Source: Candidatus Bathyarchaeia archaeon
GTDB taxonomy: Archaea; Thermoproteota; Bathyarchaeia; 40CM-2-53-6
Direction: 5' to 3'
Length of the DNA: 64,000 nt
Assembly (NCBI GenBank): GCA_050013255.1
Contig: JBEKFP010000001.1
Coordinates: forward strand, 640,001 to 704,000
Numbering within the stretch: the first letter of the stretch is position 1; each line of letters begins with the position of its first letter. The position numbers and the translations under genes were made by a program. Shown here one piece after another: positions 663 through 35,047 of this stretch. The notes under the pieces are model-generated. The model was not told the origin of the DNA and ran no database searches. It was given only the letters and a program-made list of their open reading frames with translations.

Positions 663-1910
663 TTAGTCTGTCTCGATAAGAAGCAGTTTCGGGTCTTCCA
701 AGTACTGTTTGATGGCGTTCATGAATTGGGCGGCCATGGCGCCGTCTAGGACCCGGTGGTCGAATGAGACGGATAGGTATGTCATGTCTCGGATGACAAT
801 TTGATTGTCCTTTACGACGGCGCGTTTTGTGATTTTGTGGACGCCTAGAATTGCAACTTCGGGGTAGTTGATTATCGGTGTCGCGAAAACTCCTCCGATT
901 CCACCAACATTCGTTACCGTAAACGTGCTGCCCTGAATCTCATCTAACGTCAACTGTCCAGCACGAGTTTTCTCGCTGAGCTTGGAGATTTCTTCTGCTA
1001 AGTGTGTAATCGATTTGTGTTCGGCTGCTTTCACGACTGGGACGACTAGGCCTTGCTCGGTGTCGGTGGCGATTCCAATGTTGTAGTACTTCTTGAGCAC
1101 AATCTCCTGTTTCTCGTCGTCTAGGCTGGCGTTGAGGTACGGGTACTTCTTCAGGGCCAATACGAGGGCTTTGATGATGAATGGCAGGTAGGTGAGTTTT
1201 ATTCCCTGTTTCTCAGCTGAAGCCTTAGCCTTCTCCCGCAAGTGGACAACCTCAGTCATATCGACCTCGTCCACGTGCGTGACTTGGGCGGTGCTGTCCC
1301 TCGACTTCACCATGTGTTCCGCAACCTTCCGCCGTATCCCCCGCATCGGCACACGCTCCTCGACGCCACGCGGCCCAGTCACCGTGATGGCTACTGCTGC
1401 AGCGCTTCTTCCCACATCCTTGAACCGCCTCACATCGTCGTCTATGATTCTCCCCCCTGGTCCGGTCCCTTGAACCGTTGCAAGGTCAACTCCCATGTCC
1501 CTAGCGAGTTTGCGTGTTGCCGGTGTTGCAAGGATTTCTTGCGGCTTCTTCGGGGCCACTGCAAGGGGAGCGGGTGATGGAGTAGGAGCGGTGGCCTTAG
1601 CAGGGACAACTGCGGGTGTCTTCGCGGTTGTGATGGTTGGTGAAACCGCCGGAGGCGCTGAACCTTGTTCCCCTTTTTCGCCAATTACGAGAAGAACTTG
1701 GCCCACCTTGACCGTGCCACCCTCCTTCGCCATGAGCTTTAGAATCGTTCCTTTCCTCGGCGAAGGGATTTCCACATTGACCTTATCGGTCATTATTTCG
1801 ACGAGCGGTTGGTTCTCCTTAACGTCGGCGCCTTCCTTCACGAGCCATTTCACAACTTCCCCCTCAGCGACTCCTTCGCCGATGTCTGGAAGCCGGAATT
1901 CGAACGCCAT
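663..1910 (-). CDS. 2-oxoacid dehydrogenase E2 (dihydrolipoamide acyltransferase)
   Basis: Single lipoyl domain (TDKV), Pro/Ala linker, E3-binding GTGPGGRI, catalytic DHRVLDG. Confidence 0.95.
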   Translation of the reverse strand: MAFEFRLPDIGEGVAEGEVVKWLVKEGADVKENQPLVEIMTDKVNVEIPSPRKGTILKLMAKEGGTVKVGQVLLVIGEKGEQGSAPPAVSPTITTAKTPAVVPAKATAPTPSPAPLAVAPKKPQEILATPATRKLARDMGVDLATVQGTGPGGRIIDDDVRRFKDVGRSAAAVAITVTGPRGVEERVPMRGIRRKVAEHMVKSRDSTAQVTHVDEVDMTEVVHLREKAKASAEKQGIKLTYLPFIIKALVLALKKYPYLNASLDDEKQEIVLKKYYNIGIATDTEQGLVVPVVKAAEHKSITHLAEEISKLSEKTRAGQLTLDEIQGSTFTVTNVGGIGGVFATPIINYPEVAILGVHKITKRAVVKDNQIVIRDMTYLSVSFDHRVLDGAMAAQFMNAIKQYLEDPKLLLIETD

Positions 1911-1932
1911 CTTACATCAACCCGGAACTCAT

Positions 1933-2907
1933 TCAGAAATTGTGAACTTTCTCAATCGCGTTCAGCACGCGGTTAGCGTTAGGCATGTATTCTTCTTCCA
2001 AAGCGTACGGGAAGGGGACATCGAAACCCGCTACGCGAACGATAGGCGCCTCCAAATGTAGGAGGCATCGCTCAGCAATCTGCGCTGCAATCTCCGCGCC
2101 GAACCCACAGGTCTTGCAAGCCTCGTGCAAAATAACTACCCGGCCAGTTTTCTTAACGGAACTCATGATCGTTTCAATATCGAAGGGCAGCAGGGTTCTG
2201 ATATCGACCACTTCAACGCCGATTCCCTTCGCCGCAGCTAATTCAGCCGCTTCCATAGCAACGTGGAGCATCGCGCCGTAGGCGAAGATTACAACGTCGT
2301 CTCCCTCGCGGGTGACGTTCGCTTTGCCGATGGGTATTGTGTATTCGTCGTCGGGAACTTCGCCGCGGACTGTTCGGTAGATTTTCTTCGGCTCGAGGAA
2401 CATGACGGGGTCGGGGTCGCGCAGGGCTGAGGTGAGAAGTCCTTTCGTGTCGTACGGTGTGGCTGGTATAACGACCTTGAGGCCTGGTGTGTGGATGAAG
2501 AAAGCTTCAGTGCTTTGAGAATGGTAGTGGCTGCCCTTTATGCCGCCTCCGTAAGGCGTTCGAATCACGAGGGGTGTTGTGAAATGGCCTCCGGACCGGT
2601 ACCTGAACTTGGACAATTCGCTTTGAATTTGGTCGAAGGCCGGGTAGATGAAGTCCAAGAATTGAATTTCTGGGACCGGCTTAAGCCCGTAGAGCGCCAT
2701 CCCGATTGAAACGCCGATAATCCCTGATTCTGCGAGCGGTGTGTCTATGACGCGGTTCGGCCCGAATTCTTGGAATAGCCCTTCCGTGGCGCGGAAGACG
2801 CCCCCGTTGATTCCGACATCCTCACCTAGGATCACAATCTTGTCGTTTCGCTTCATCTCATCCCGAAGCGTATGATTGACAGCCTGAACAATGTTGAGAA
2901 GCGCCAT
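1933..2907 (-). CDS. 2-oxoacid dehydrogenase E1 beta subunit
   Basis: GEDVG..GGVFR, DTPLAE, EIQF, YHSQS motifs. Confidence 0.95.
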   Translation of the reverse strand: MALLNIVQAVNHTLRDEMKRNDKIVILGEDVGINGGVFRATEGLFQEFGPNRVIDTPLAESGIIGVSIGMALYGLKPVPEIQFLDFIYPAFDQIQSELSKFRYRSGGHFTTPLVIRTPYGGGIKGSHYHSQSTEAFFIHTPGLKVVIPATPYDTKGLLTSALRDPDPVMFLEPKKIYRTVRGEVPDDEYTIPIGKANVTREGDDVVIFAYGAMLHVAMEAAELAAAKGIGVEVVDIRTLLPFDIETIMSSVKKTGRVVILHEACKTCGFGAEIAAQIAERCLLHLEAPIVRVAGFDVPFPYALEEEYMPNANRVLNAIEKVHNF

Positions 2908-2910
2908 GGG

Positions 2911-3993
2911 TTACGTGCTCTCCCCTTTCTCTTCGCGAAGTTCACGAAGCTGTTCCTCAAGGTGCCACGGCATTTCCTCGTAAACGTCCGTGAAGAGAGT
3001 CTCCAATGCCGGCCGCGGCAATTTCTCGCAGTAAGCGACGGCTTCATCCAATTCCAGGGTAGCTTGTTCCTGCGCCTTCTTCTCGTCTGCCTCGTTCCAG
3101 AGTCTTTTTTTCTCTAGGTACCTTCGGAACCTGACGAGGGGGTCGCGGTTTTGCCATTCCGCCAATTCCGCCTCAGCCCGGTACCGTTTCGGGTCGTCGG
3201 ATGACGAGTGCGGCCCCATACGGTAAGTAACAGCCTCAATCAACGTTGGCCCATCACCCTTACGCGCCTTGTCCACAGCCTCCTTCGTTGTCCTGTAAAC
3301 AGCTAGAATATCATTTCCGTCGACACGCATGCCTTCGAAGCCGTACGCTTGAGCTTTGATGGCTATGGTTTCAGAGGCAGTCTGTTTTTCTACTGGGACG
3401 GAGATTGCCCAATGGTTGTTCTGGCAGAAGAATACCGTCGGCGTTTTGTAAACGCCTGCAAAGTTCATACCGGTGTGGAAATCGTTTGCGGAGGTGGCAC
3501 CGTCGCCGAAGTAAGCCATCGTGACAATCGGGTCGCCTCTAAGCTTCGCAGCGAGCGCCGTACCAACAGCGTGCGGGATCTGCGTGGCGATGGGCGCTGA
3601 GCCGGAAACGTAATTGACGGATTTGAGGCCGAACAAGTTCGTGATCTGGCGCCCTTTCTGAACATCCTCCGCGTTAGCAAAGTACTGGTTCAGAAGCTGC
3701 TTGAGCGTAATCCCCCGAACAAGCATTGAGCCAATTTCCCTGTAAGCGGGGAAAATCCAGTCCTCAGGGTTTAACGCATAGGCGCTTCCAATATGCGCCG
3801 CCTCCTGACCCAAGCCGCCTATGAAGAAGCCGATTCTACCCGACCGCTGCAACTGAAGACCACGTATGTCTAAACACCTGGCGAGAACCATAGTCCGGTA
3901 GAGCCGGCGCAGCTCGTCTTTCGAAATTTCCGGCTCCATCTTCTCAACGTACTCGCCTGTTGGTTTTATGACCTGCAGTAACTCAAGGCTCAA
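2911..3993 (-). CDS. 2-oxoacid dehydrogenase E1 alpha subunit
   Basis: TPP motif GDGATS...NN; YRMGPHSSSDD phosphorylation loop. Confidence 0.95.
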   Translation of the reverse strand: MSLELLQVIKPTGEYVEKMEPEISKDELRRLYRTMVLARCLDIRGLQLQRSGRIGFFIGGLGQEAAHIGSAYALNPEDWIFPAYREIGSMLVRGITLKQLLNQYFANAEDVQKGRQITNLFGLKSVNYVSGSAPIATQIPHAVGTALAAKLRGDPIVTMAYFGDGATSANDFHTGMNFAGVYKTPTVFFCQNNHWAISVPVEKQTASETIAIKAQAYGFEGMRVDGNDILAVYRTTKEAVDKARKGDGPTLIEAVTYRMGPHSSSDDPKRYRAEAELAEWQNRDPLVRFRRYLEKKRLWNEADEKKAQEQATLELDEAVAYCEKLPRPALETLFTDVYEEMPWHLEEQLRELREEKGEST

Positions 3994-4111
3994 ACTCTAA
4001 CCCTCTCGTGAGGTTGCCGGAAACGAACTCGAAAGCTGGACTAGCACTAGTAAATCTTTGCCCTTTTGGCGGTGACATTGAGAAGACATGTTGCGTCAGC
4101 GCTGTCAAGAA

Positions 4112-5059
4112 TCAAGCTAGAGCGTGTAGTCTCTTCTTACGTATCAGTGCTTCAACGAAGAATTCACCAGCTCTATACGAGCTGCGAACGAACGGGCCTG
4201 AAGCCACGTACAAGAATCCGAGTTCTTCAGCCAAAGTCTTGTAGTGTTCAAACGTTTCCGGGCTAACGTACTCGGTGACAGGGATATGGCCCCTGGAGGG
4301 TCGAAGGTACTGGCCTAAGGTCAGGATATCCACATCAACATCCCGTAGGTCCTTCATCGCTTTGACGAGATCGCCCTCAGTCTCGCCTAGGCCAAGCATA
4401 ATAGACGATTTCGAATAAACCGTCGGATCCAATTCCTTGATTCCCTTCAGAACCCAGAGGGATTGCTTGTATGTTGCCCTCGGGTCGCGAACCTTTGGCG
4501 ACAGCGGTTCCGTGGTTTCTATGTTGTGGGCTACGACTTCGGGAGCTGCGTCAACAACTTTCTTCACGTCATCAAGATTTCCCTGGAAATCAGGAATCAA
4601 CACTTCCGTAATCACGTTCGGGTCTTGCTGTTTGATGGCCTTGATCGTTGACGCGAAGTGGCCTGCGCCGCCGTCGGGAAGGTCGTCGCGGTCTACGGAC
4701 GTTATCACCACGTACTTCAAGCCCAAATGGGCAATCGTCTTAGCGACGTTCACGGGCTCAAAAATGTCCAGTAACCCGTGCGGGTTTCCGCTCTTAACCA
4801 TGCAAAACCGGCAGCCCCGCGTACAAGTGTCGCCCATTAGCATGAAGGTGGCTGTCCCACCACCCCAGCACTCCGCCACATTGGGGCAGTGCGCTTCCTC
4901 GCAAACCGTGTGAAGGTTGTGGTTTCGAAGGACGTCTTTAATTCTCTCATAATTCTGGCCAGTGGGATACTTCACACGTAGCCACTCAGGCTTCTCGGCA
5001 CCCTGAGTTTCTTGAATTTGCAGGACGTGTGAATAACGGGGCATGCGAGACCCAGACAA
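4112..5059 (-). CDS. lipA: Lipoyl synthase
   Basis: CEEAHCPNVAEC auxiliary cluster, CTRGCRFC radical SAM motif, C-terminal RSSY. Confidence 0.97.
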   Translation of the reverse strand: MSGSRMPRYSHVLQIQETQGAEKPEWLRVKYPTGQNYERIKDVLRNHNLHTVCEEAHCPNVAECWGGGTATFMLMGDTCTRGCRFCMVKSGNPHGLLDIFEPVNVAKTIAHLGLKYVVITSVDRDDLPDGGAGHFASTIKAIKQQDPNVITEVLIPDFQGNLDDVKKVVDAAPEVVAHNIETTEPLSPKVRDPRATYKQSLWVLKGIKELDPTVYSKSSIMLGLGETEGDLVKAMKDLRDVDVDILTLGQYLRPSRGHIPVTEYVSPETFEHYKTLAEELGFLYVASGPFVRSSYRAGEFFVEALIRKKRLHALA

Positions 5060-7335: not shown

Positions 7336-8976
7336 TTGGATGAATTGCTAATGGGCAAGGATTTTGAGAAATTGAGGTTGAGAAGGTTCTTTGTTGGAGG
7401 ATTGTTTGGCGGTATTCTTGCCACAGTCATATTGTTTGTTGGTACTGAGTTTCTTGGGTTCCCCTTCCCGCCCTTAGCAATCTTTCAAGCGCTAATCGCT
7501 CCGGTTCCGGGGTCGATTCAATCGGTCATGGTTGACACGTTTCGTGAATATGCCAAGTATTCGGCCTTCGTAGCCTCCTCCGCCATCTACGCCATAATAT
7601 ACGGCCTCATCGCTGTTGGCTTAGCGTTTGTGTTCAAGGGAGACTTGCACGGTAAAGTGAAGGAAGCAACGCTTGTTGGCGTCGGCGTGCCAACGGTGAT
7701 TGGCCTCGGCCTTCAGTTAGAGTTAGCGAACGCATTCCCAGCCATATCGTCCTTGTACGGTTGGGTTCTTGCCGGCATCCTCGTCATCGCAGTGAACCTC
7801 ATCTACGCTAAAACGGTCATCAACTACACGACAACTGTCCCAGCCGCCGTAACCGCGAAGCAAACGCCTATGACGGCCATTCCATCCGTGCGGCGTGGTT
7901 TCTTGAAGAAGGCTGTGGTCGCGGCGGCCGTTCTTGTGTTCGCTGGTGTTGCAGCTAAGATTGGACTGTCCATACTCTCAAACCAACCAGTCGTGACAAG
8001 CGGGTCAGCTGTGCCAATCAACCCTAGCGGGCCAATAATACCCACACTTCCTAGCGGTGCCCCGGATATTTTCAGTGACCCAAGAATCAGCAACTTAGTA
8101 GCCTCCGAGGTAACCGATAACCGGGTGTTCTACCGGGTAGACATTAACCCGATTCCCCCGCAACTGGACTTCGACAAATGGATGCTGAATGTTCACGGGA
8201 AAATGAACAACGCCCAGACGCTCGACAAGAACTCGTTGCTGCAACTGGCCACCGTTGACCAGTACGCTACGCTTGAATGCGTTAGCAACTCGACCTATCC
8301 GCCGGGTGGCCTTATCAGTAACGCCAAGTGGACCGGCGTCCCGCTCGCCACGCTACTCAAACAAGCGGGGCTACTCGCAAATTCAAATTATGTCGTGTTT
8401 CGGTGCGCAGACGGTTACACGGTCGGCATACCAATCGCACGTGCATTAGAGCCAGGGGCTCTCTTGGCGTACAAGATGAATGATACCATGCTTCCCAACG
8501 AGCATGGGTTCCCTCTACGTGCGATCGTTCCAGGGATTTATGGGATGATGAATGCGAAGTGGATTACGGAAATCGAAGTCACAGACCAAGTGTACTTGGG
8601 GTACTGGCAGGAACGCGGCTGGTCCAACGACGCCCGTATCAAAACAACCTCCATCATCTACTACCCCACAGGCAACGTGCAAATGAATGGCTCCACGCCG
8701 ATCGCAGGCGTCGCCTTCGCCGGCGACCGCGGCATCAGCAAAGTTGAGGCCAGCGTTGATGGCGGGAACACTTGGAATGAGGCCACTTTGAAGCCCCCGC
8801 GCTCACCCTACTCCTGGGTGCTATGGGCTTATGCGTGGAAACCTACGGCAACTGGCACCGCTAACATCATTGTGAGAGCCACCGATGGGAAAGGCCAACT
8901 ACAAGACCCAACCGTCACACAATCCTTCCCCGACGGAGCCTCAGGATACTCGTCCGTCCAAGTCACGGTTGCATGA
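7336..8976 (+). CDS. Sulfite oxidase-family molybdopterin oxidoreductase with N-terminal membrane domain
   Basis: Mo-ligand TLECVSN, HGFPLRAIVPG.YG..NAKW, C-terminal Ig-like dimerisation domain; internal RRGFLKK. Confidence 0.9.
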   Translation: MDELLMGKDFEKLRLRRFFVGGLFGGILATVILFVGTEFLGFPFPPLAIFQALIAPVPGSIQSVMVDTFREYAKYSAFVASSAIYAIIYGLIAVGLAFVFKGDLHGKVKEATLVGVGVPTVIGLGLQLELANAFPAISSLYGWVLAGILVIAVNLIYAKTVINYTTTVPAAVTAKQTPMTAIPSVRRGFLKKAVVAAAVLVFAGVAAKIGLSILSNQPVVTSGSAVPINPSGPIIPTLPSGAPDIFSDPRISNLVASEVTDNRVFYRVDINPIPPQLDFDKWMLNVHGKMNNAQTLDKNSLLQLATVDQYATLECVSNSTYPPGGLISNAKWTGVPLATLLKQAGLLANSNYVVFRCADGYTVGIPIARALEPGALLAYKMNDTMLPNEHGFPLRAIVPGIYGMMNAKWITEIEVTDQVYLGYWQERGWSNDARIKTTSIIYYPTGNVQMNGSTPIAGVAFAGDRGISKVEASVDGGNTWNEATLKPPRSPYSWVLWAYAWKPTATGTANIIVRATDGKGQLQDPTVTQSFPDGASGYSSVQVTVA

Positions 8977-29462: not shown

Positions 29463-30281
29463 TCATGTTTCCTTCACCTTAATGCTGCTTCCTTGCTCTG
29501 AGGTCTTCCCGTATCTGTGGGCAGTGATCTCTGCCATTATGCTGAGGGCTATTTCGGCAGGCGTTCGGGCTCCTATGTCCAGACCTATGGGCGCCTTGAC
29601 TCTTGCCAGTAGCTCGTTTGATACGCCCTGCTGTTTCAGGTGAGAGAAGGTCGCTGCGACCTTTTCTTTGCTTCCTATCATGCCAATATATCCCGGAAGC
29701 AATTTCTTTGAGAGGCATTCCTTCAAGACAACCTCGTCATGCTGATGCCCACGAGTGACCATGACAACGCAGTCTTCCGCATGAAAATCCATTGACTTGG
29801 CCGCTCCAACGAAATCGCCCAACTTCACCTCATCAGCTAGAGGAAAACGCTTCCTGTCGGCGAAATCCTCTCGATCGTCAACAACGATTACAGCGAAATC
29901 AAGTGCCTTAGCGAACTCGACAAGAGGAACAGCAATATGTCCTCCGCCGAAAACATACATTGTCGAGGTACCCAAGATTGGTTCCACAAAGACCTTCACC
30001 TTCCCACCGCAAAGTACACCAATGCCATCAGCGCTTTGATCATCAAGCGTTAACTCCAGCAACCTTGGCGTCCTATCATGTAGGCACCGCAAACCTTCTT
30101 CTCGAATCTTCGCTTCAAGCAATCCCCCTCCAACCGTGCCCAGGATCGTGCCGTCAGCATAGACGAGCATACGGAACCCGGTCTTCCCCGGAGCCCCTCT
30201 TTCACCACCCACCACTGTTGCAAGAGAAGCTTTGGAACGTTCTCGCCTTATCCGTGCAATCTCTTCGAAAATATCAGGCAC
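29463..30281 (-). CDS. XdhC/CoxI-family Moco chaperone
   Basis: GTVGGG..E, CGG...VFVEP, FGGGH, TRGH..D, YIGMIGS, PIGLDIGA.TP.EIA. Confidence 0.92.
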   Translation of the reverse strand: MPDIFEEIARIRRERSKASLATVVGGERGAPGKTGFRMLVYADGTILGTVGGGLLEAKIREEGLRCLHDRTPRLLELTLDDQSADGIGVLCGGKVKVFVEPILGTSTMYVFGGGHIAVPLVEFAKALDFAVIVVDDREDFADRKRFPLADEVKLGDFVGAAKSMDFHAEDCVVMVTRGHQHDEVVLKECLSKKLLPGYIGMIGSKEKVAATFSHLKQQGVSNELLARVKAPIGLDIGARTPAEIALSIMAEITAHRYGKTSEQGSSIKVKET

Positions 30282-30300
30282 TTTGACCCATCAACTTCAG

Positions 30301-30726
30301 TCATGGTTCGCTCTCAATGGTTGGTTCGATTAGGACTGGTGGCTTTATCGAATTTGCAATCAAGCTGTACTTGCGAGCCCAATCAAGCGCCTTTCCCACT
30401 CGCTCAACGGATTCTGTCTTGACTTTAATTTTGGGTTTGAGAATGGTCTGGGTGAATGTGGAAGTCCGGTCTAGCAGATCCACTACGTGGCCTTCAGCTT
30501 CGCATTCATAAGAAACGAGTTGAATCTTCAACCGTTCAGCAGCCCAGATGAACATCATGTGAAAGCATGTGTTCAATGCCGCGACGTAAGCATCTTCGGG
30601 CGTCATGACTCCATAACGACCTTGAAGGGCTGGAGGTGCAGAGAAGCTCATGTTTGTGCCATTGCCGCAAGCTAGCTCTCCGTCGTGGCCTCCTGTCCAG
30701 ACTACCTTCGTTTTGTATACTGGCAA
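30301..30726 (-). CDS. OsmC/Ohr-like protein
   Basis: FSAPP...G......PED..VAA...C; second Cys position reads YSLIANS. Confidence 0.8.
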   Translation of the reverse strand: MPVYKTKVVWTGGHDGELACGNGTNMSFSAPPALQGRYGVMTPEDAYVAALNTCFHMMFIWAAERLKIQLVSYECEAEGHVVDLLDRTSTFTQTILKPKIKVKTESVERVGKALDWARKYSLIANSIKPPVLIEPTIESEP

Positions 30727-30730
30727 CCAT

Positions 30731-31147
30731 CTACACCCAGTGTCTTAGAACTTCGTCGACTTCTTCAGCGATCCTGTCAGCAACTTTTCGTGTAACCGTT
30801 AGGGTCTCATCGTTCAGTTTGCGACGAGTACCGAGCCTTGGACACTGCCAGTTCTTCAATATGTCAGTGACGACGATTGATGACGCCGGTTTTCCACTGT
30901 AGCGCTCCGTAGCGGTCTTGGCGCACATCCTGTCGCATCCGTCAACCGTAATTGTTGGGTAGTCTCGTGCGAAGTCTCTCTCTTCTCTACCTCCTGCGAG
31001 GAACAATGGAAGACAGATCGTCACAGTTTCATTTGGTTTCAGCTTTCCTAAGACTAAGCGTGTAGCTACTCGTGACATTGTACCTTCAACGCACTCTTCT
31101 CCGCTGCAGGATATGATGCCAACTTTCTTCTCTTGCACTTCAACCAT
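30731..31147 (-). CDS. DGC-domain putative Zn-binding protein
   Basis: CSG, CL, ITVDGC..MCA. Confidence 0.85.
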   Translation of the reverse strand: MVEVQEKKVGIISCSGEECVEGTMSRVATRLVLGKLKPNETVTICLPLFLAGGREERDFARDYPTITVDGCDRMCAKTATERYSGKPASSIVVTDILKNWQCPRLGTRRKLNDETLTVTRKVADRIAEEVDEVLRHWV

Positions 31148-31566
31148 TATTGTCCCACCACCAAGTTGTCCACCTGTTTGGCAATTTTCTCAGCAAGCGC
31201 CAACGCCATCTGCTGACCGTCGGGATCGAGGAAGGTAACACCTCTCGGTTTCAGATGCCTGTTTTCCTTGTAAACGTCAACCACTCGGACACTTCCGGCT
31301 AGATCACCGCCAGCGAGCTTGACGTTTTTCTCAGCGCACTGAAGTGGGCATCCGTCAACCGTAATGCACTTGTGGTTACGCACAAGCTGCAGAGATTCCT
31401 CGTCCCCACTCACAAGCAATGCGAGACATAGGGTCTGCGTGCCGTCTCTGCGAAGGTTTTCAGTGACCTCGTAAGTTGCGTCTCGGGCTATGCTTCCGAA
31501 TGCCTTACCGATTCCGCTGCATGGTATTACAATCACTTTCTTCTGATTTGGACTGTCCATTTTCAT
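31147..31566 (-). CDS. DGC-domain putative Zn-binding protein
   Basis: CSG, CLA, ITVDGCPLQCA. Confidence 0.85.
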   Translation of the reverse strand: MKMDSPNQKKVIVIPCSGIGKAFGSIARDATYEVTENLRRDGTQTLCLALLVSGDEESLQLVRNHKCITVDGCPLQCAEKNVKLAGGDLAGSVRVVDVYKENRHLKPRGVTFLDPDGQQMALALAEKIAKQVDNLVVGQ

Positions 31567-32021
31567 CTGGACTCCAGTTTGTCATGTCCGCTTTGCAGCT
31601 TTTCGAGCATCAACTTGTAATAATCGTCGGCACTCAACAGTGATGTACGGTCATCATCGAGGTTGCGTGGGGCGATGACAACCAGCCAGCCCTCTCCATA
31701 AGGATCGGAATTAACCAGCTCAGGCTTTCCAATGAGCTTGCTGTTCGTATCCTCAAGTTCTCCTGACATTGGGGAGAGTAATGCTACAGTCGTTTTTGCG
31801 CTCTCCATGGTCCCAAGCTCTTGGCCTTTCTCAACTGTCGAACCTGGTTTTGCTACTTCAACAAATGCTACATCGCCCGATGTCTTCTGAAGGTAGTCGC
31901 TCACTCCAACCTTCGCTTTGCCATTCTCGACACTGACCCAGAGGTCATCTTTTGTGTAGTAGAACCCTTTGCGCACCCGCAGCTCGAACTTGTCGTAGGT
32001 GGTTGTGAAATATTCGCTCAA
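31563..32021 (-). CDS. Glycine cleavage H-like lipoyl carrier protein
   Basis: VGVSDY.Q...GDV.FVE, lipoyl site ESAKT, N.DPYGEGW. Confidence 0.9.
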   Translation of the reverse strand: MSEYFTTTYDKFELRVRKGFYYTKDDLWVSVENGKAKVGVSDYLQKTSGDVAFVEVAKPGSTVEKGQELGTMESAKTTVALLSPMSGELEDTNSKLIGKPELVNSDPYGEGWLVVIAPRNLDDDRTSLLSADDYYKLMLEKLQSGHDKLESR

Positions 32022-32227
32022 GTCGAACCGTTCCTAGATGATGGCGCAAGGGCGACAGGCTCACAGTCCATGCAGTAATCGGTTTCCTTGTTCGTCCAGT
32101 AGACCTTACCACATCGAGGGCAGGTTGTTTTTCTGAGCCAGTCTTTCTTAGCAGGGGGAGCACGCATCAGGTCAGAATGCCTGGCAGCGCATGCACAAGT
32201 CCCCGGGTTCTCCTCATCCTGCAACAC
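32018..32227 (-). CDS. Small Cys-rich Zn-finger protein
   Basis: CAC, CPRC...CMDC. Confidence 0.7.
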   Translation of the reverse strand: MLQDEENPGTCACAARHSDLMRAPPAKKDWLRKTTCPRCGKVYWTNKETDYCMDCEPVALAPSSRNGST

Positions 32228-32240
32228 GGCGCAACCTCCG

Positions 32241-33314
32241 CTAGCAGACTCCGCCCATTCCGACTTTTTGAGCGGATTTGGTTTCTACGCTGATTGCTTG
32301 GAGGTGGTTTCGCCTTCGACGCGCCATCCAGACAATGGTAAGCATCACTGGAATTTCTATGAGAGGACCAACCACGGTCGAAACCGCCACCATCGGCATC
32401 GATGCAAAAGCTGTTAGCGCTATGGCTATTGCGAGTTCAAAGTTCCTTCCGGTGCAGTGAAAGCCCATAGTACATGCATCTTCATAGTTGTAACCCATGC
32501 GCTTGGTAGTGTAGTATACGAGGTTGAAAAGCAAGAAGAAGAACAGCACTACAGGAATGGCCATCTGCCAGATTAGGTTAGGATTATCAAGTATTACGCC
32601 TCCTCTAAGAGAGAACATTACGACCATCGTGAATAGTAGTGCCAGAAGCTGCATCGTGTTGAAGTAGGGAATCAACTTCCTATTCAACCAGTCCTCAGAT
32701 TTCCGTTTGATGACCTCCCTTCGAGTTATTACACCGAAGAGTAACGGTAATCCAAGATAGAGAAGAACGCTCTCTCCGATCAAACCGATATCAATGGAGA
32801 TGTATGTTCCTACGAGCAGAGCAATGTACAGAGGCGTTGTGATAACTTGGATAATGGAGTTCCACGCCATGAGAACAATTCCGAGTGGACCATTACCGTT
32901 CGCCAGATCAGTCCAGACTAGGACCATTGCAATGCAAGGCGCTACGCCAAGCAGAATCAAGCCTGTCCAGAGATAACGTGCCGTCTCAGCTGTGATTAGG
33001 CCGAAGTAAGGTAGAACCTGCTCGAAGAATACGAACCCGAGCGCATAGAGCAAGAAGGGGTTTACGGCGTAATTGAAGAAGGCGATTACGCCAACCTGCC
33101 TCTTACTTCGTAGCGCAACCTTCAACTCGTTCAACTCGATCTTCGTCATGGCCGGGTAGATCATCAGGAACAGCCCGATTGGAATGCCAATCTGAAGGTA
33201 CTTGCCGAGCTCAGGCAGGTACTTGCCGAGTCCAAGGCCGATGATTATGCAGGCCCCTATCCACACCGCCAAGAGTTTGTCGATCCAACCAAGCCTACTT
33301 GTTTTCTCATTCAT
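32241..33314 (-). CDS. acr3: Arsenite efflux pump Acr3
   Basis: APCIAMVLVW, NFELAIA, GPLIE.PV. Confidence 0.95.
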   Translation of the reverse strand: MNEKTSRLGWIDKLLAVWIGACIIIGLGLGKYLPELGKYLQIGIPIGLFLMIYPAMTKIELNELKVALRSKRQVGVIAFFNYAVNPFLLYALGFVFFEQVLPYFGLITAETARYLWTGLILLGVAPCIAMVLVWTDLANGNGPLGIVLMAWNSIIQVITTPLYIALLVGTYISIDIGLIGESVLLYLGLPLLFGVITRREVIKRKSEDWLNRKLIPYFNTMQLLALLFTMVVMFSLRGGVILDNPNLIWQMAIPVVLFFFLLFNLVYYTTKRMGYNYEDACTMGFHCTGRNFELAIAIALTAFASMPMVAVSTVVGPLIEIPVMLTIVWMARRRRNHLQAISVETKSAQKVGMGGVC

Positions 33315-33324
33315 GTTGACGATC

Positions 33325-33399
33325 TCCCACTCCTATGGCCATTGCTAAGAAAATCTAGAGCGTAAGAAACCTGTCGAGCAGCGACAGTCGCTGCGTCAT
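33325..33399 (-). pseudogene. N-terminal remnant of a second acr3
   Basis: MTQRLSLLDRFLTL*IFLAMAIGVG; TAG at 33355-33357 where Acr3 normally has Trp. Confidence 0.75.
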
Positions 33400-33446
33400 T
33401 TTTCCCAGACTCGTGATTCTATGCGCTGATGGTACAAAGGAAATGA

Positions 33447-34181
33447 TCAGCTAGGTTTCGAGGCCTTCCAGGCCATGCTCTTCACGTGAAGTTGCTGCGA
33501 CGCCGTTTCCTCGTTTATTGGGTGGGATTCATCCGATCCTTGCACTTCTATGAAACCCGCCTTTTCGAGGATACCTCGGTACTCGTTGGGCGTAACGGCC
33601 CCTGATATGCAAGCTGCCCATTCTTCTGGCTTGATTGGCTTTCGGCCTTCTTGAGTAGCAACCATGTCTGACACTGAAATTCTACCTCCGGGTTTGAGGA
33701 CACGGTAGATTTCTTTGAACGCTAATTCCTTGTTTGGGACCAAGTTCAGCACGCAGTTGCTTATGACTAGGTCCACAGAGTCACTCTCAATGGGCATGTG
33801 CTCTATCTCCCCGAGTCGAAACTCCACATTTTCATAATCATGTTTCTTGGCTGTTTCACGTGCGCGGAAAATCATTTCGGGAGTGGCATCAAGCCCGATT
33901 ATCTTGCCCGATTTGCCTACGAGTTTCGATGCACGGAAGACATCGACGCCTCCGCCACTACCAAGGTCCAGTATGGTTTCCCCCTCCCGAACCTCGGCAT
34001 GCGCTAGGGGCAAACCACAACTTGCAACGACATTCAAAGCCTCACTGGGAAGATCACCTTCCTCCATTACTCCCGTGGCGCAGCACGAGTTCTCGGCCCC
34101 TCCTCCGCAGCATGGTTCATTCAACACAGCCAGTTTGCTGTAGTGTTTTCTTACAGCTTCCTTGATTTGTTCTTCACTCAT
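33447..34181 (-). CDS. arsM: Arsenite S-adenosylmethionine methyltransferase
   Basis: CC-rich N-terminus, SCG.P, DLGSGGG.D, ISNCVLNL, W..CISGA; start set at MSEEQIK. Confidence 0.92.
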   Translation of the reverse strand: MSEEQIKEAVRKHYSKLAVLNEPCCGGGAENSCCATGVMEEGDLPSEALNVVASCGLPLAHAEVREGETILDLGSGGGVDVFRASKLVGKSGKIIGLDATPEMIFRARETAKKHDYENVEFRLGEIEHMPIESDSVDLVISNCVLNLVPNKELAFKEIYRVLKPGGRISVSDMVATQEGRKPIKPEEWAACISGAVTPNEYRGILEKAGFIEVQGSDESHPINEETASQQLHVKSMAWKASKPS

Positions 34182-34209
34182 GTTCGCTCGTCCACAAGAC
34201 ATCAGAACA

Positions 34210-34233
34210 ACATATTTAAGAATGTTGATATGT
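34210..34233. promoter_or_regulatory. Putative ArsR operator
   Basis: ACATAT-N12-ATATGT inverted repeat in the divergent arsM/arsR gap. Confidence 0.6.
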
Positions 34234-34250
34234 ATTCTGTTTTGGTCAGC

Positions 34251-34649
34251 ATGAGCGCAACAATCGCCCAAGCAAGAGTCAAACGCCTCGTAAACCTCGG
34301 GTTAGTCAACTCTAATTGCACCCCCAACGAACGAATTACGCAACTGAAATCGAGAATAAGCGAGGATGACGTCACCTTTCGAGAACTGAAGACATTCTTC
34401 TCCGCGCTTGGTGATTCTACTCGGCTGAGGATGCTTAGGCTGATTGGTGATGAGGAGTTATGCTCTTGCGAAGTCATGGCCACCCTTGAGCTGACACAGC
34501 CGACCACTTCGCACCACCTAGGAATACTCGAAAGGGCTGGGCTCCTCAGTTCACGGCGCAACGGGAAATGGGTATTCTACAAGATAGCGAACCCGAAAGT
34601 CAAGAACCTGATCACTAAAGGATTCAAACTCATTGAGGGGGCGGAGTGA
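34251..34649 (+). CDS. arsR: ArsR repressor
   Basis: F.ALGD.TRL, ELCSCE, QPT.SHHL..L..AGL, RRNGKW.FY. Confidence 0.92.
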   Translation: MSATIAQARVKRLVNLGLVNSNCTPNERITQLKSRISEDDVTFRELKTFFSALGDSTRLRMLRLIGDEELCSCEVMATLELTQPTTSHHLGILERAGLLSSRRNGKWVFYKIANPKVKNLITKGFKLIEGAE

Positions 34650-35047
34650 TGAAGCGAGTGCTCTTTGTCTGCGTAGAGAACGCGGGCAGAAGCCAGATGG
34701 CTGAGGCCATTGCACGCTCATACGGGATCGAGGCTACTAGCGCAGGCACGATCCCGGCGGCAGCAGTCAACCCAACCGTCGTTGAAGCCATGAAAGAGAG
34801 GGGGTTCAATCTGTCTTCCACCAAGCCGAAGCTTCTGACCCCCCAGATGATTGAAGCGGCCGACTACGTTGTTACAATGGGCTGCCGTGTCGAAGACGTT
34901 TGCCCAAGACCCCTGATCGTCAAGATGGAGAAGAAGCTTGTTGATTGGCACATCGACGACCCTAAAGGAAAACCGGTGGAGGATGTCCGCAAGATACGAA
35001 GCGAAATAGAAAACCGCGTTATTGAATTGCTCAAGAAACCAAGCTAA
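34646..35047 (+). CDS. arsC: Arsenate reductase (LMW-PTP fold)
   Basis: CVENAGRSQMAE, TMGC....CP, DW..DDP.G. Confidence 0.92.
   Translation: MMKRVLFVCVENAGRSQMAEAIARSYGIEATSAGTIPAAAVNPTVVEAMKERGFNLSSTKPKLLTPQMIEAADYVVTMGCRVEDVCPRPLIVKMEKKLVDWHIDDPKGKPVEDVRKIRSEIENRVIELLKKPS

Follow-up and report, generated by a model that had tools for sequence, protein, structure and literature searches.

Results

Gene content of the locus

We have analysed a 64,000-nucleotide stretch of the 2.46-Mb genome of a Bathyarchaeia archaeon (the window; C1:640001-704000, where C1 is the contig that carries it), in which an arsenic resistance (ars) operon is extended by genes for a lipoyl carrier resembling the glycine-cleavage H-protein GcvH, two proteins of the DGC family (DGC1 and DGC2) and an OsmC-like protein. 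The names attached to near-identical proteins point to peat as the habitat of this archaeon. Ten genes are arranged in two divergent arms (Table 1). One arm holds arsR and arsC, the start of which overlaps the arsR stop by 4 nt, and the other runs from arsM through acr3 and the gene of a 69-aa cysteine protein to the GcvH-like, DGC1, DGC2, OsmC-like and xdhC genes. An original prediction made from the letters alone had placed all ten genes correctly: each call is supported by Pfam, with top NCBIfam matches in agreement, and only the 69-aa protein is without a family. The same prediction described gaps of -4 to 19 bp downstream of arsM. This holds from acr3 onwards, where the successive junctions measure +13 nt (acr3/69-aa gene), -4 (69-aa gene/gcvH-like), -4 (gcvH-like/DGC1), -1 (DGC1/DGC2), +4 (DGC2/OsmC-like) and +19 (OsmC-like/xdhC), and fails between arsM and acr3, which lie 132 bp apart with a GGAG-type ribosome site preceding acr3.

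By its gene content the locus is an ars operon, with an ArsR that carries an As(III)-type cysteine site, an arsenite efflux permease, ArsC and ArsM. The CxC site of ArsR (CSC) lies in the region of the DNA-binding helix, and a CxC is found in 74 of 76 ArsR sequences from loci of the kind described below. ArsC has the CX5R motif and two downstream cysteines, and its top NCBIfam matches are to arsenate reductase (thioredoxin), below cut-off. ArsM shows N-terminal cysteine pairs together with SNCV and C-x-x-GA cysteine motifs.

Table 1. Genes and promoter-region palindrome of the ars cluster (window positions; matches to Pfam and NCBIfam)
Feature	Position	Strand	Matches and remarks
xdhC	29463..30281	-	XdhC_C 1.2e-44; XdhC_CoxI 1.6e-16
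OsmC-like protein, atypical	30301..30726	-	Pfam OsmC 1.5e-11
DGC-domain protein 2 (DGC2)	30731..31147	-	PF08859 1.5e-16, 60.8 bits (Pfam cut-off 27)
DGC-domain protein 1 (DGC1)	31147..31566	-	PF08859 7.4e-16, 58.6 bits (Pfam cut-off 27)
GcvH-like lipoyl carrier	31563..32021	-	GCV_H 7.1e-34
69-aa cysteine protein, zinc-ribbon-like	32018..32227	-	N-terminal CxC and two CxxC
acr3, ACR3-family arsenite efflux permease	32241..33314	-	SBF 6.3e-40; TIGR00832 259 bits (cut-off 283)
arsM, As(III) S-adenosylmethionine methyltransferase, 244 aa from ATG 34181	33447..34181	-	Methyltransf_31 6.6e-37; NCBIfam arsenite methyltransferase 252 bits (cut-off 263)
Perfect 6-8-6 palindrome CAACAT-N8-ATGTTG with TATA-like core	34208..34227	.	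Sole exact copy in the window
arsR, ArsR/SmtB repressor, 132 aa	34251..34649	+	Pfam HTH_5 4.8e-15; NCBIfam metalloregulator ArsR/SmtB 92 bits (cut-off 55)
arsC, low-molecular-weight phosphatase type arsenate reductase	34646..35047	+	Pfam LMWPc 1.4e-24

Recurrence of the four-gene block beside ars genes

The extension is not peculiar to this genome. A search of 401 Bathyarchaeia genomes with DGC1 found the gene in 52 genomes from 21 of 131 genera; 54 loci were fetched and the ten window proteins mapped onto them. In these loci the GcvH-like, DGC1, DGC2 and OsmC-like genes nearly always occur together and in that order, adjoining ArsR and Acr3 genes, while ArsC and ArsM are frequent but optional. 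A second survey, restricted to one genome per species and seeded with a DGC2-only alignment, yielded at least 571 confirmed stretches from several phyla, of which the best 80 loci were analysed. They derive from Bathyarchaeia, Aminicenantes/Acidobacteriota, Chloroflexota, Bacillota (Pelotomaculum, Desulfovirgula), Syntrophales, Syntrophobacteraceae, Limisphaerales and a 'Proteobacteria' metagenome-assembled genome; the bacterial hosts include Thermodesulfobacteriota and Verrucomicrobiota, and at least six bacterial phyla have DGC2 homologues with 52-62% identity. Among these best 80 loci the GcvH-like gene is present in 72, DGC1 in 79 and the OsmC-like gene in 66, and the accompanying genes are ArsR (61), Acr3 (44), ArsC (36), ArsM (11) and XdhC (3).

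Proximity to ars genes was scored as a distance of up to 6 kb from the DGC pair, in loci flanked by 4 kb or more of sequence on either side. Roughly a dozen loci belong to both the Bathyarchaeia set and the all-phyla set, and related genomes lack independence; the following counts are therefore descriptive and do not amount to a statistical test: an ars gene is near the pair in 23/24 Bathyarchaeia loci and 47/50 all-phyla loci, ArsC in 10/24 and 26/50, and ArsM in 7/24 and 7/50, whereas ArsR/Acr3 without either ArsC or ArsM is found in 9/24 and 18/50. As controls we used eight window genes that flank the cluster; none of them (0/8) was found in any of the 134 fetched loci, those of the same genus included. 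The failure of the flanking genes to recur even within the genus indicates that the cluster moves as an island. DGC1 is present in just 2 of the 22 other genomes of the window's own genus, which marks the module as an accessory trait and, taken with the unshared flanking genes, suggests that the cluster sits in a mobile, variable region. The linkage foreseen in the original prediction is thus borne out well beyond this genome, with the same block beside ars genes in the fetched loci, and ars operons are genuinely extended, in a conserved way, by the lipoyl-carrier, DGC and OsmC genes.

Variation around the block is informative. Two types of Acr3, with 82-88% and 31-36% identity to the window Acr3, occupy the same slot beside the module in Bathyarchaeia, which implies that the pump has been exchanged and the pairing kept, and argues for selection on the pairing. 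The contrast in Acr3 type is between loci L047, L048, L050, L066, L070 and L073 and the other Bathyarchaeia loci. In another Bathyarchaeia variant (L077, L079, L081, L083, L084, L086), three to five tandem DGC genes are followed by an H-protein gene near ArsR/Acr3, without an OsmC-like gene. The H-proteins of this variant form their own subclade, and its existence points to the DGC/H-protein pair as the irreducible core. In bacterial versions the stretch from OsmC to acr3 also holds a Thioredoxin_3 protein, a further thioredoxin and a DsbD_TM protein.

A single in-frame TAG is present in the DGC2 homologues of two genomes (G282:C6:8022-8402 and G307:C5:53315-53707), and a single in-frame TGA in the gene for lipoyl dehydrogenase (Lpd) of a third (G155:C151:7452-8813). 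These could be pseudogenes, assembly errors or instances of recoding.

A second H-protein set apart from glycine cleavage

The genome has three GCV_H genes. The canonical copy (C1:463754) lies by gcvT (C1:460384), 208 kb from the copy among the ars genes (C1:671.6 kb), and gcvP is found at C1:94932-97219 and on contig 2, in agreement with the earlier observation that neither gcvP nor gcvT is near the cluster. The ars-linked H-protein is 43% identical to the canonical one. It scores 117.9 bits on PRK01202, where the cut-off is 117, and 106.5 bits on TIGR00527, below the equivalog cut-off of 115.85; the canonical GcvH scores 163 and 146.2 bits, respectively. Four of five bacterial hosts that were checked likewise carry a better-scoring GcvH elsewhere. 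In a quick maximum-likelihood tree, the canonical GcvH sequences group together with a Shimodaira-Hasegawa-like approximate likelihood ratio test (SH-aLRT) value of 90, and all 106 DGC-linked H-proteins, from both domains of life, form one clade apart from them (SH-aLRT 81).

The ars-linked protein has thus kept the GCV_H fold with the lipoyl-lysine in an E-[ST]-x-K hairpin, and has neither the equivalog score nor the gcvT/gcvP partnership of a glycine-cleavage protein. Its lipoyl lysine, Lys76 in the motif ESAKT, had been pointed out previously and proves to be conserved in 106/107 module H-proteins, as is E73. Going by score, clade and the separate canonical GcvH beside gcvT, a function limited to glycine cleavage, which the original prediction had named as the outcome that would speak against it, does not apply; on sequence grounds the ars-linked H-protein is a dedicated paralogue. 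The third GcvH-like gene (C1:1362903-1363262; locus L003:1429-2127) encodes 232 aa, scores 90 bits on PRK01202 and adjoins genes for a rhodanese-type sulfurtransferase (top match 3-mercaptopyruvate sulfurtransferase) and a phosphoribosyltransferase-like protein. It may represent another non-glycine use of an H-protein.

The means to lipoylate and reduce the carrier are encoded close by. It had been claimed that LipA and a complex with lipoyl dehydrogenase lie in the window; LipA (4112-5059) and the E1alpha, E1beta and E2 genes, the last with a lipoyl domain (663-3993), are indeed inside, but the dehydrogenase itself (E3, Lpd) is just to the left of the window, at C1:636.6-638.2 kb together with a lipoate-protein ligase. 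With LipA, the E1/E2 complex, Lpd and the ligase encoded, lipoylation and reduction of the H-protein are possible. Phyletic profiles add little: a lipoate ligase family gene is present in 385/401 Bathyarchaeia genomes and is therefore uninformative on dependence on lipoylation, and Lpd or an Lpd-like flavoprotein is found at some level in 27/27 Bathyarchaeia genomes, 10 of them above the equivalog cut-off, which does not discriminate either. The complete 2-oxoacid dehydrogenase operon (663-5059 plus C1:636.6-638.2 kb) is worth recording in its own right, the lineage being usually held to be strictly anaerobic.

An OsmC fold with a remodelled active site

The AlphaFold2 (AF2) model of the OsmC-like protein (predicted local distance difference test, pLDDT, 92.4) has the OsmC fold, with template modelling (TM) scores of 0.86 to Ta0195 (2onf) and 0.77 to Escherichia coli OsmC (1qwi). 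In the alignment to Ohr (1zb8), Cys54 corresponds to the peroxidatic Cys61 of helix 1 and Glu44, ten residues before it, to Glu51; both are kept in 96/96 sequences. The other two catalytic residues are replaced. His14 aligns with the catalytic Arg19 of Xylella Ohr (His in 93/96, Arg in 1/96), and Ser121 aligns with the resolving Cys of Ta0195 on helix 2 (Ser in 93/96). A new cysteine, Cys75, is found on a beta-strand and is kept in 95/96. Judged from these substitutions the protein has the OsmC fold and is not a standard peroxidase. The known use of lipoyl electrons by Ohr/OsmC enzymes against peroxide, to which the original prediction appealed, does not transfer directly to a protein that has lost two of the four catalytic residues.

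The DGC pair and the 69-aa cysteine protein

Both DGC proteins belong to PF08859, with the domain and its four conserved cysteines, including the DGC motif. The invariant residues are C16, C47, C73 and C77 in DGC1 (67 sequences) and C14, C45, C71 and C75 in DGC2, which gives substance to their earlier description as cysteine-rich. The AF2 model of DGC1 (pLDDT 92.7) is a flavodoxin-like alpha/beta sandwich. Its cysteines occupy the C-terminal ends of strands 1-3 and the beginning of the helix that follows, where folds of this type usually bind their ligands. DGC has no sequence relative in PDB, Foldseek found nothing below E 0.01, and a wide structural search returned generic flavodoxin-like and HybD-like matches alone, the best (Z 8.9) being an uncharacterised Wolinella protein. 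With no close solved structure, the fold gives no function.

Natural fusions are more telling. DGC-DGC fusions of 304-444 aa suggest that the two DGC proteins act as a pair, and there is one fusion of DGC to Thioredoxin_3 (P0179, 258 aa); the set of fused or extended proteins comprises P0121, P0125, P0205, P0179 and P0129. In Chloroflexota, DGC2 is prolonged at its C terminus by about 100 aa, which include a CxC resembling that of the 69-aa protein. The latter has six invariant cysteines arranged as CxC, CxxC and CxxC (15 sequences) and was found by tblastn in 14/54 and 19/80 loci. It matches no Pfam or NCBIfam family, and its atlas neighbours are unnamed Chloroflexota and Bathyarchaeota clusters.

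XdhC is an add-on

The xdhC gene had been counted as part of the module. It encodes both the XdhC_CoxI and XdhC_C domains but has no client of the xanthine dehydrogenase (XDH) family in the cluster. It is the second copy in the genome; the other (C1:979366, 35% identical) lies by XDH-family enzymes at C1:980766-985449, and five XDH-family large subunits are encoded in all. Among the 54 Bathyarchaeia loci, xdhC directly follows the OsmC-like gene in L041, L042 and L044 alone, which are from the closest relatives, and a distance of up to 6 kb from the DGC pair was scored for it in 3/24 and 2/50 loci. Genome G329, of the same genus (L042), has it between the OsmC-like gene and arsC on one strand. 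With so few relatives carrying the gene, XdhC was rejected as a core member and is, from its distribution, a lineage-specific addition to the operon. The window also encodes a sulfite-oxidase-type molybdoenzyme (Oxidored_molyb and Mo-co_dimer, 546 aa) at 7336-8976.

The divergent promoter region

Translation starts were assigned to ATG 34181 for arsM and ATG 34251 for arsR, and the ATGAGCG start of arsR agrees with its orthologues. The palindrome between the arms is about 35 nt from either start codon. It was originally called an operator. The divergent arms and the perfect palindrome were confirmed, but in eight related loci the arms of the palindrome are not strictly conserved and the TATA-like core alone is kept, as ATATTTAAGAA, about 30 nt upstream of arsR. 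A conserved ArsR operator was therefore rejected; binding of ArsR to this palindrome is plausible, and it stands as a candidate site. The region looks like a shared divergent promoter, one archaeal TATA region serving both arms, and the transcripts of both arms are probably leaderless. A second perfect palindrome, of 17 nt (GCAGCGA-CTG-TCGCTGC, 33378-33394), occurs in the arsM-acr3 gap ahead of T-rich runs and may act as a weak terminator, as an attenuator or as a site for a protein. Folding of the whole 132-bp gap as a structured RNA or terminator gave z = -1.9, which is not significant.

Discussion

The recurrence of a fixed gene order beside ArsR and Acr3 across two domains of life makes it very probable that the four core proteins, i.e. 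the H-protein paralogue, the DGC pair and the re-tooled OsmC-fold protein, work together as an accessory arsenic-response module under the control of ArsR. In the genome studied here it is combined with arsM, acr3, the small CxC/zinc-ribbon protein and a spare XdhC. Each module protein carries an invariant thiol site: the lipoyl lysine of the H-protein, the four cysteines of each DGC protein, and Cys54 and Cys75 of the OsmC-like protein.

Trivalent arsenicals bind dihydrolipoyl dithiols with high affinity. One possibility, which we favour tentatively and which may well prove wrong, is that the module serves anaerobes as a relay that buffers As(III) and hands it on, rather than as a peroxidase; all of the chemistry is inferred. 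The H-protein would be lipoylated by the ligase or LipA of the cell, and the Lpd encoded about 30 kb away would maintain its dithiol state. Its swinging dihydrolipoyl arm would chelate As(III) or methyl-As(III) by the same chemistry through which arsenite poisons 2-oxoacid dehydrogenases, and would then dock in the OsmC-like protein, a member of a fold family built to accept dihydrolipoamide. Cys54 and Cys75 of this protein and the Cys4 sites of the DGC pair could take the metalloid by thiolate exchange, so that As(III) would be kept off essential dithiols and handed to Acr3 for export. Such a relay is favoured because the constant partners of the module are an As(III) sensor and an As(III) pump, not ArsC or ArsM (the loci that have ArsR/Acr3 alone point to As(III) itself as the substrate), because the active site of the OsmC-like protein is remodelled, and because CxC motifs recur, in the 69-aa protein and in the Chloroflexota DGC2 extension. 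Several points weigh against it. To our knowledge, the known Acr3 pumps need no chaperone, and a stoichiometric buffer would require high expression. The pairing of a lipoyl protein with OsmC is exactly that of known redox (peroxidase) relays, and the thioredoxins and DsbD/CcdA-type membrane protein of the bacterial versions fit a flow of electrons at least as well as a hand-off of metalloid. OsmC is dispensable in the multi-DGC variants, the Cys4 site of DGC could hold a structural Zn or an Fe-S cluster, and the separate H-protein clade is modestly supported (SH-aLRT 81, in a quick tree only).

The main rival is a lipoyl-driven reductase relay, a catalytic redox system in the manner of the lipoyl-dependent Ohr/OsmC peroxidases. 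Electrons would pass from NADH through Lpd and the lipoyl-H-protein, the OsmC-like and DGC proteins would receive them, and a substrate would be reduced at the end; we considered peroxides formed under arsenic stress, arsenate, pentavalent methylarsenicals and protein disulfides. H-protein and OsmC are used in this way in Trichomonas hydrogenosomes, as summarised in PMC7946386, and Ohr is lipoyl-dependent according to a reference listed in PMC12440151 and to PDB entry 6ebg. The peroxidase-site Cys54 and Glu44 are invariant, but the catalytic Arg is replaced by His and the resolving Cys by Ser in 93/96 sequences, and the hosts are strict anaerobes of peat, sediment and aquifers. The thioredoxin-fold and DsbD_TM proteins added in bacteria and the DGC-Thioredoxin_3 fusion agree with a reductase, and the many loci without ArsC nearby leave room for an alternative arsenate reductase; the multi-DGC variants, on the other hand, do without OsmC. 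The distribution of the electron donor can be read both ways, Lpd or a full-length Lpd-like flavoprotein being present in nearly all good module-bearing Bathyarchaeia genomes and Lpd above the equivalog cut-off in 10/27 only. Overall we regard this relay as possible but doubtful. The idea that the lipoyl-H-protein replaces thioredoxin as the donor for ArsC and/or ArsM had been put forward in the original prediction. ArsC and ArsM require thiol reductants, both are encoded in this window, and one or the other is near the module in many loci, as counted above. This cannot be the core role, however, when neither gene is within 6 kb in 9/24 and 18/50 loci and the module stands with ArsR/Acr3 alone; a simple shuttle needs neither two DGC proteins nor an OsmC-like protein, and the ArsC of the window has a thioredoxin-type cysteine pattern. 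We consider supply of reductant a distinctly unlikely core function.

Arsenite inhibits lipoyl enzymes and also enzymes of the xanthine-oxidase family, and the module might accordingly protect cofactors by providing arsenic-induced spare carriers for the two that arsenite poisons. The DGC and OsmC-like proteins would strip arsenic from the lipoyl groups of a second carrier, and the second XdhC would re-mature arsenite-inhibited molybdenum hydroxylases, for which the five XDH-family large subunits offer possible clients. GcvH and XdhC are both extra copies with housekeeping paralogues beside their normal partners, gcvT and XDH-family enzymes, and in G329 xdhC is embedded between the OsmC-like gene and arsC. 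XdhC is found with the module in no more than 3/24 and 2/50 loci, however, and the 'de-arsenylase' activity is postulated in an idea built on analogy; it seems improbable. The most prosaic account, an ordinary glycine-cleavage H-protein and unrelated housekeeping genes that lie beside ars genes by chance, might appeal to the PRK01202 score, which just reaches the cut-off, and to the 43% identity with the canonical copy. It is hardly credible when the canonical GcvH lies by gcvT elsewhere, the DGC-linked H-proteins form a separate clade, and the four-gene order recurs by ars genes across domains while the control neighbours never do; an ordinary glycine-cleavage role was rejected on the canonical copy and the recurrent ars linkage.

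For some 80 years, binding to dihydrolipoyl groups has been the explanation of arsenite toxicity. If the buffer and hand-off relay is correct, many uncultured anaerobes have turned this chemistry into a defence. Lipoate would then have a third role, besides acyl or aminomethyl carriage and redox, as a carrier of As(III) on a dedicated H-protein, from which the metalloid would pass to the Cys4 sites of the DGC pair and the re-tooled OsmC-fold protein and on to Acr3. More broadly, arsenic may induce in anaerobes spare carriers for just those cofactors that arsenite poisons, namely lipoate and, here, also the sulfurated molybdenum cofactor through a second XdhC. We offer this larger picture as speculation that is rather unlikely to hold as it stands. 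Host groups such as Bathyarchaeia, Chloroflexota, Aminicenantes and syntrophs are common inhabitants of peat, paddy soil, aquifers and sediments, settings in which arsenic becomes mobile, and the module probably represents an unstudied element of the way in which anaerobes deal with it. It places the DGC family (PF08859) and a distinct OsmC subfamily in a functional context for the first time, and adds a new kind of gene to the catalogue with which arsenic cycling is read in metagenomes. Should the reductase relay be correct instead, the module could fill the place of a missing anaerobic reductase for arsenate or pentavalent methylarsenicals. With four small soluble core proteins, it is directly testable.

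The original prediction knew of no description of such a module, and we found none: literature searches returned no ars operon with a lipoyl carrier, DGC and OsmC-like protein and no paper linking GcvH or lipoyl proteins with ars operons, and a single preprint, discussed below, was the only paper to mention PF08859. The module thus appears to be undescribed, but its parts have parallels. Classical ars operons (arsR-acr3/arsB-arsC, with arsM, arsD/arsA or arsH) share with it the ArsR CxC, Acr3, an ArsC of the low-molecular-weight phosphatase type and ArsM around one promoter region. The metallochaperone ArsD hands As(III) to the ArsA ATPase, and on the relay reading the module would resemble this system in that soluble, cysteine-rich proteins capture As(III) for delivery to the efflux machinery; there is no homology, however, the partner here is Acr3, and protein-bound lipoate would join the relay.

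Among the closest known systems is the L-protein/H-protein/OsmC pathway for peroxide detoxification in the hydrogenosome of Trichomonas vaginalis (Nyvltova et al., 2016, as summarised in PMC7946386), together with the lipoyl-dependent Ohr (Cussiol et al., 2010), which has been crystallised with dihydrolipoamide bound according to the titles of PDB entries 6ebg and 6ebd. Common to these systems and the module are an orphan H-protein without P- or T-protein and an OsmC-family protein, the lipoyl dithiol as the working group and Lpd as the likely reductant. In contrast, the OsmC-like protein described here has neither the catalytic Arg nor the resolving Cys and has the new invariant Cys75, two DGC proteins are obligatory partners while OsmC is missing in some variants, and the module is wired to ArsR/Acr3 rather than to oxidative stress.

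Other GcvH paralogues have been put to new uses. The lipoate-binding proteins (LbpA) of sHdr sulfur oxidation (Cao et al., 2018, PMC6067878) are similarly given to a non-glycine function and encoded with their partners, but the partners and the regulator differ; a sulfur oxidation role of this type was rejected here, as neither the genes at 29463-35047 nor their neighbours include any of the Hdr, DsrE or TusA families. In the GcvH-L stress operon of Staphylococcus aureus (PMC4518038, PMC12440151), a second H-protein serves stress defence rather than metabolism. The module has no counterpart of the sirtuin, macrodomain protein and LplA2 of that operon, and its stress is arsenic.

Similar in its regulation is an operon of Pseudodesulfovibrio mercurii ND132, arsR5-arsP-'ArsE' (PF13192, thioredoxin-like)-DGC, which is up-regulated with arsenic by RNA-seq and in which the function of the DGC protein was left open by the authors (bioRxiv 10.1101/2022.10.17.512643). 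It differs from the module in having a single DGC gene and neither an H-protein nor an OsmC-like protein. It has in common with it a PF08859 protein under an ArsR, paired with Thioredoxin_3 as in the bacterial modules and in the fusion protein P0179, and it is the sole experimental indication of a response of DGC genes to arsenic.

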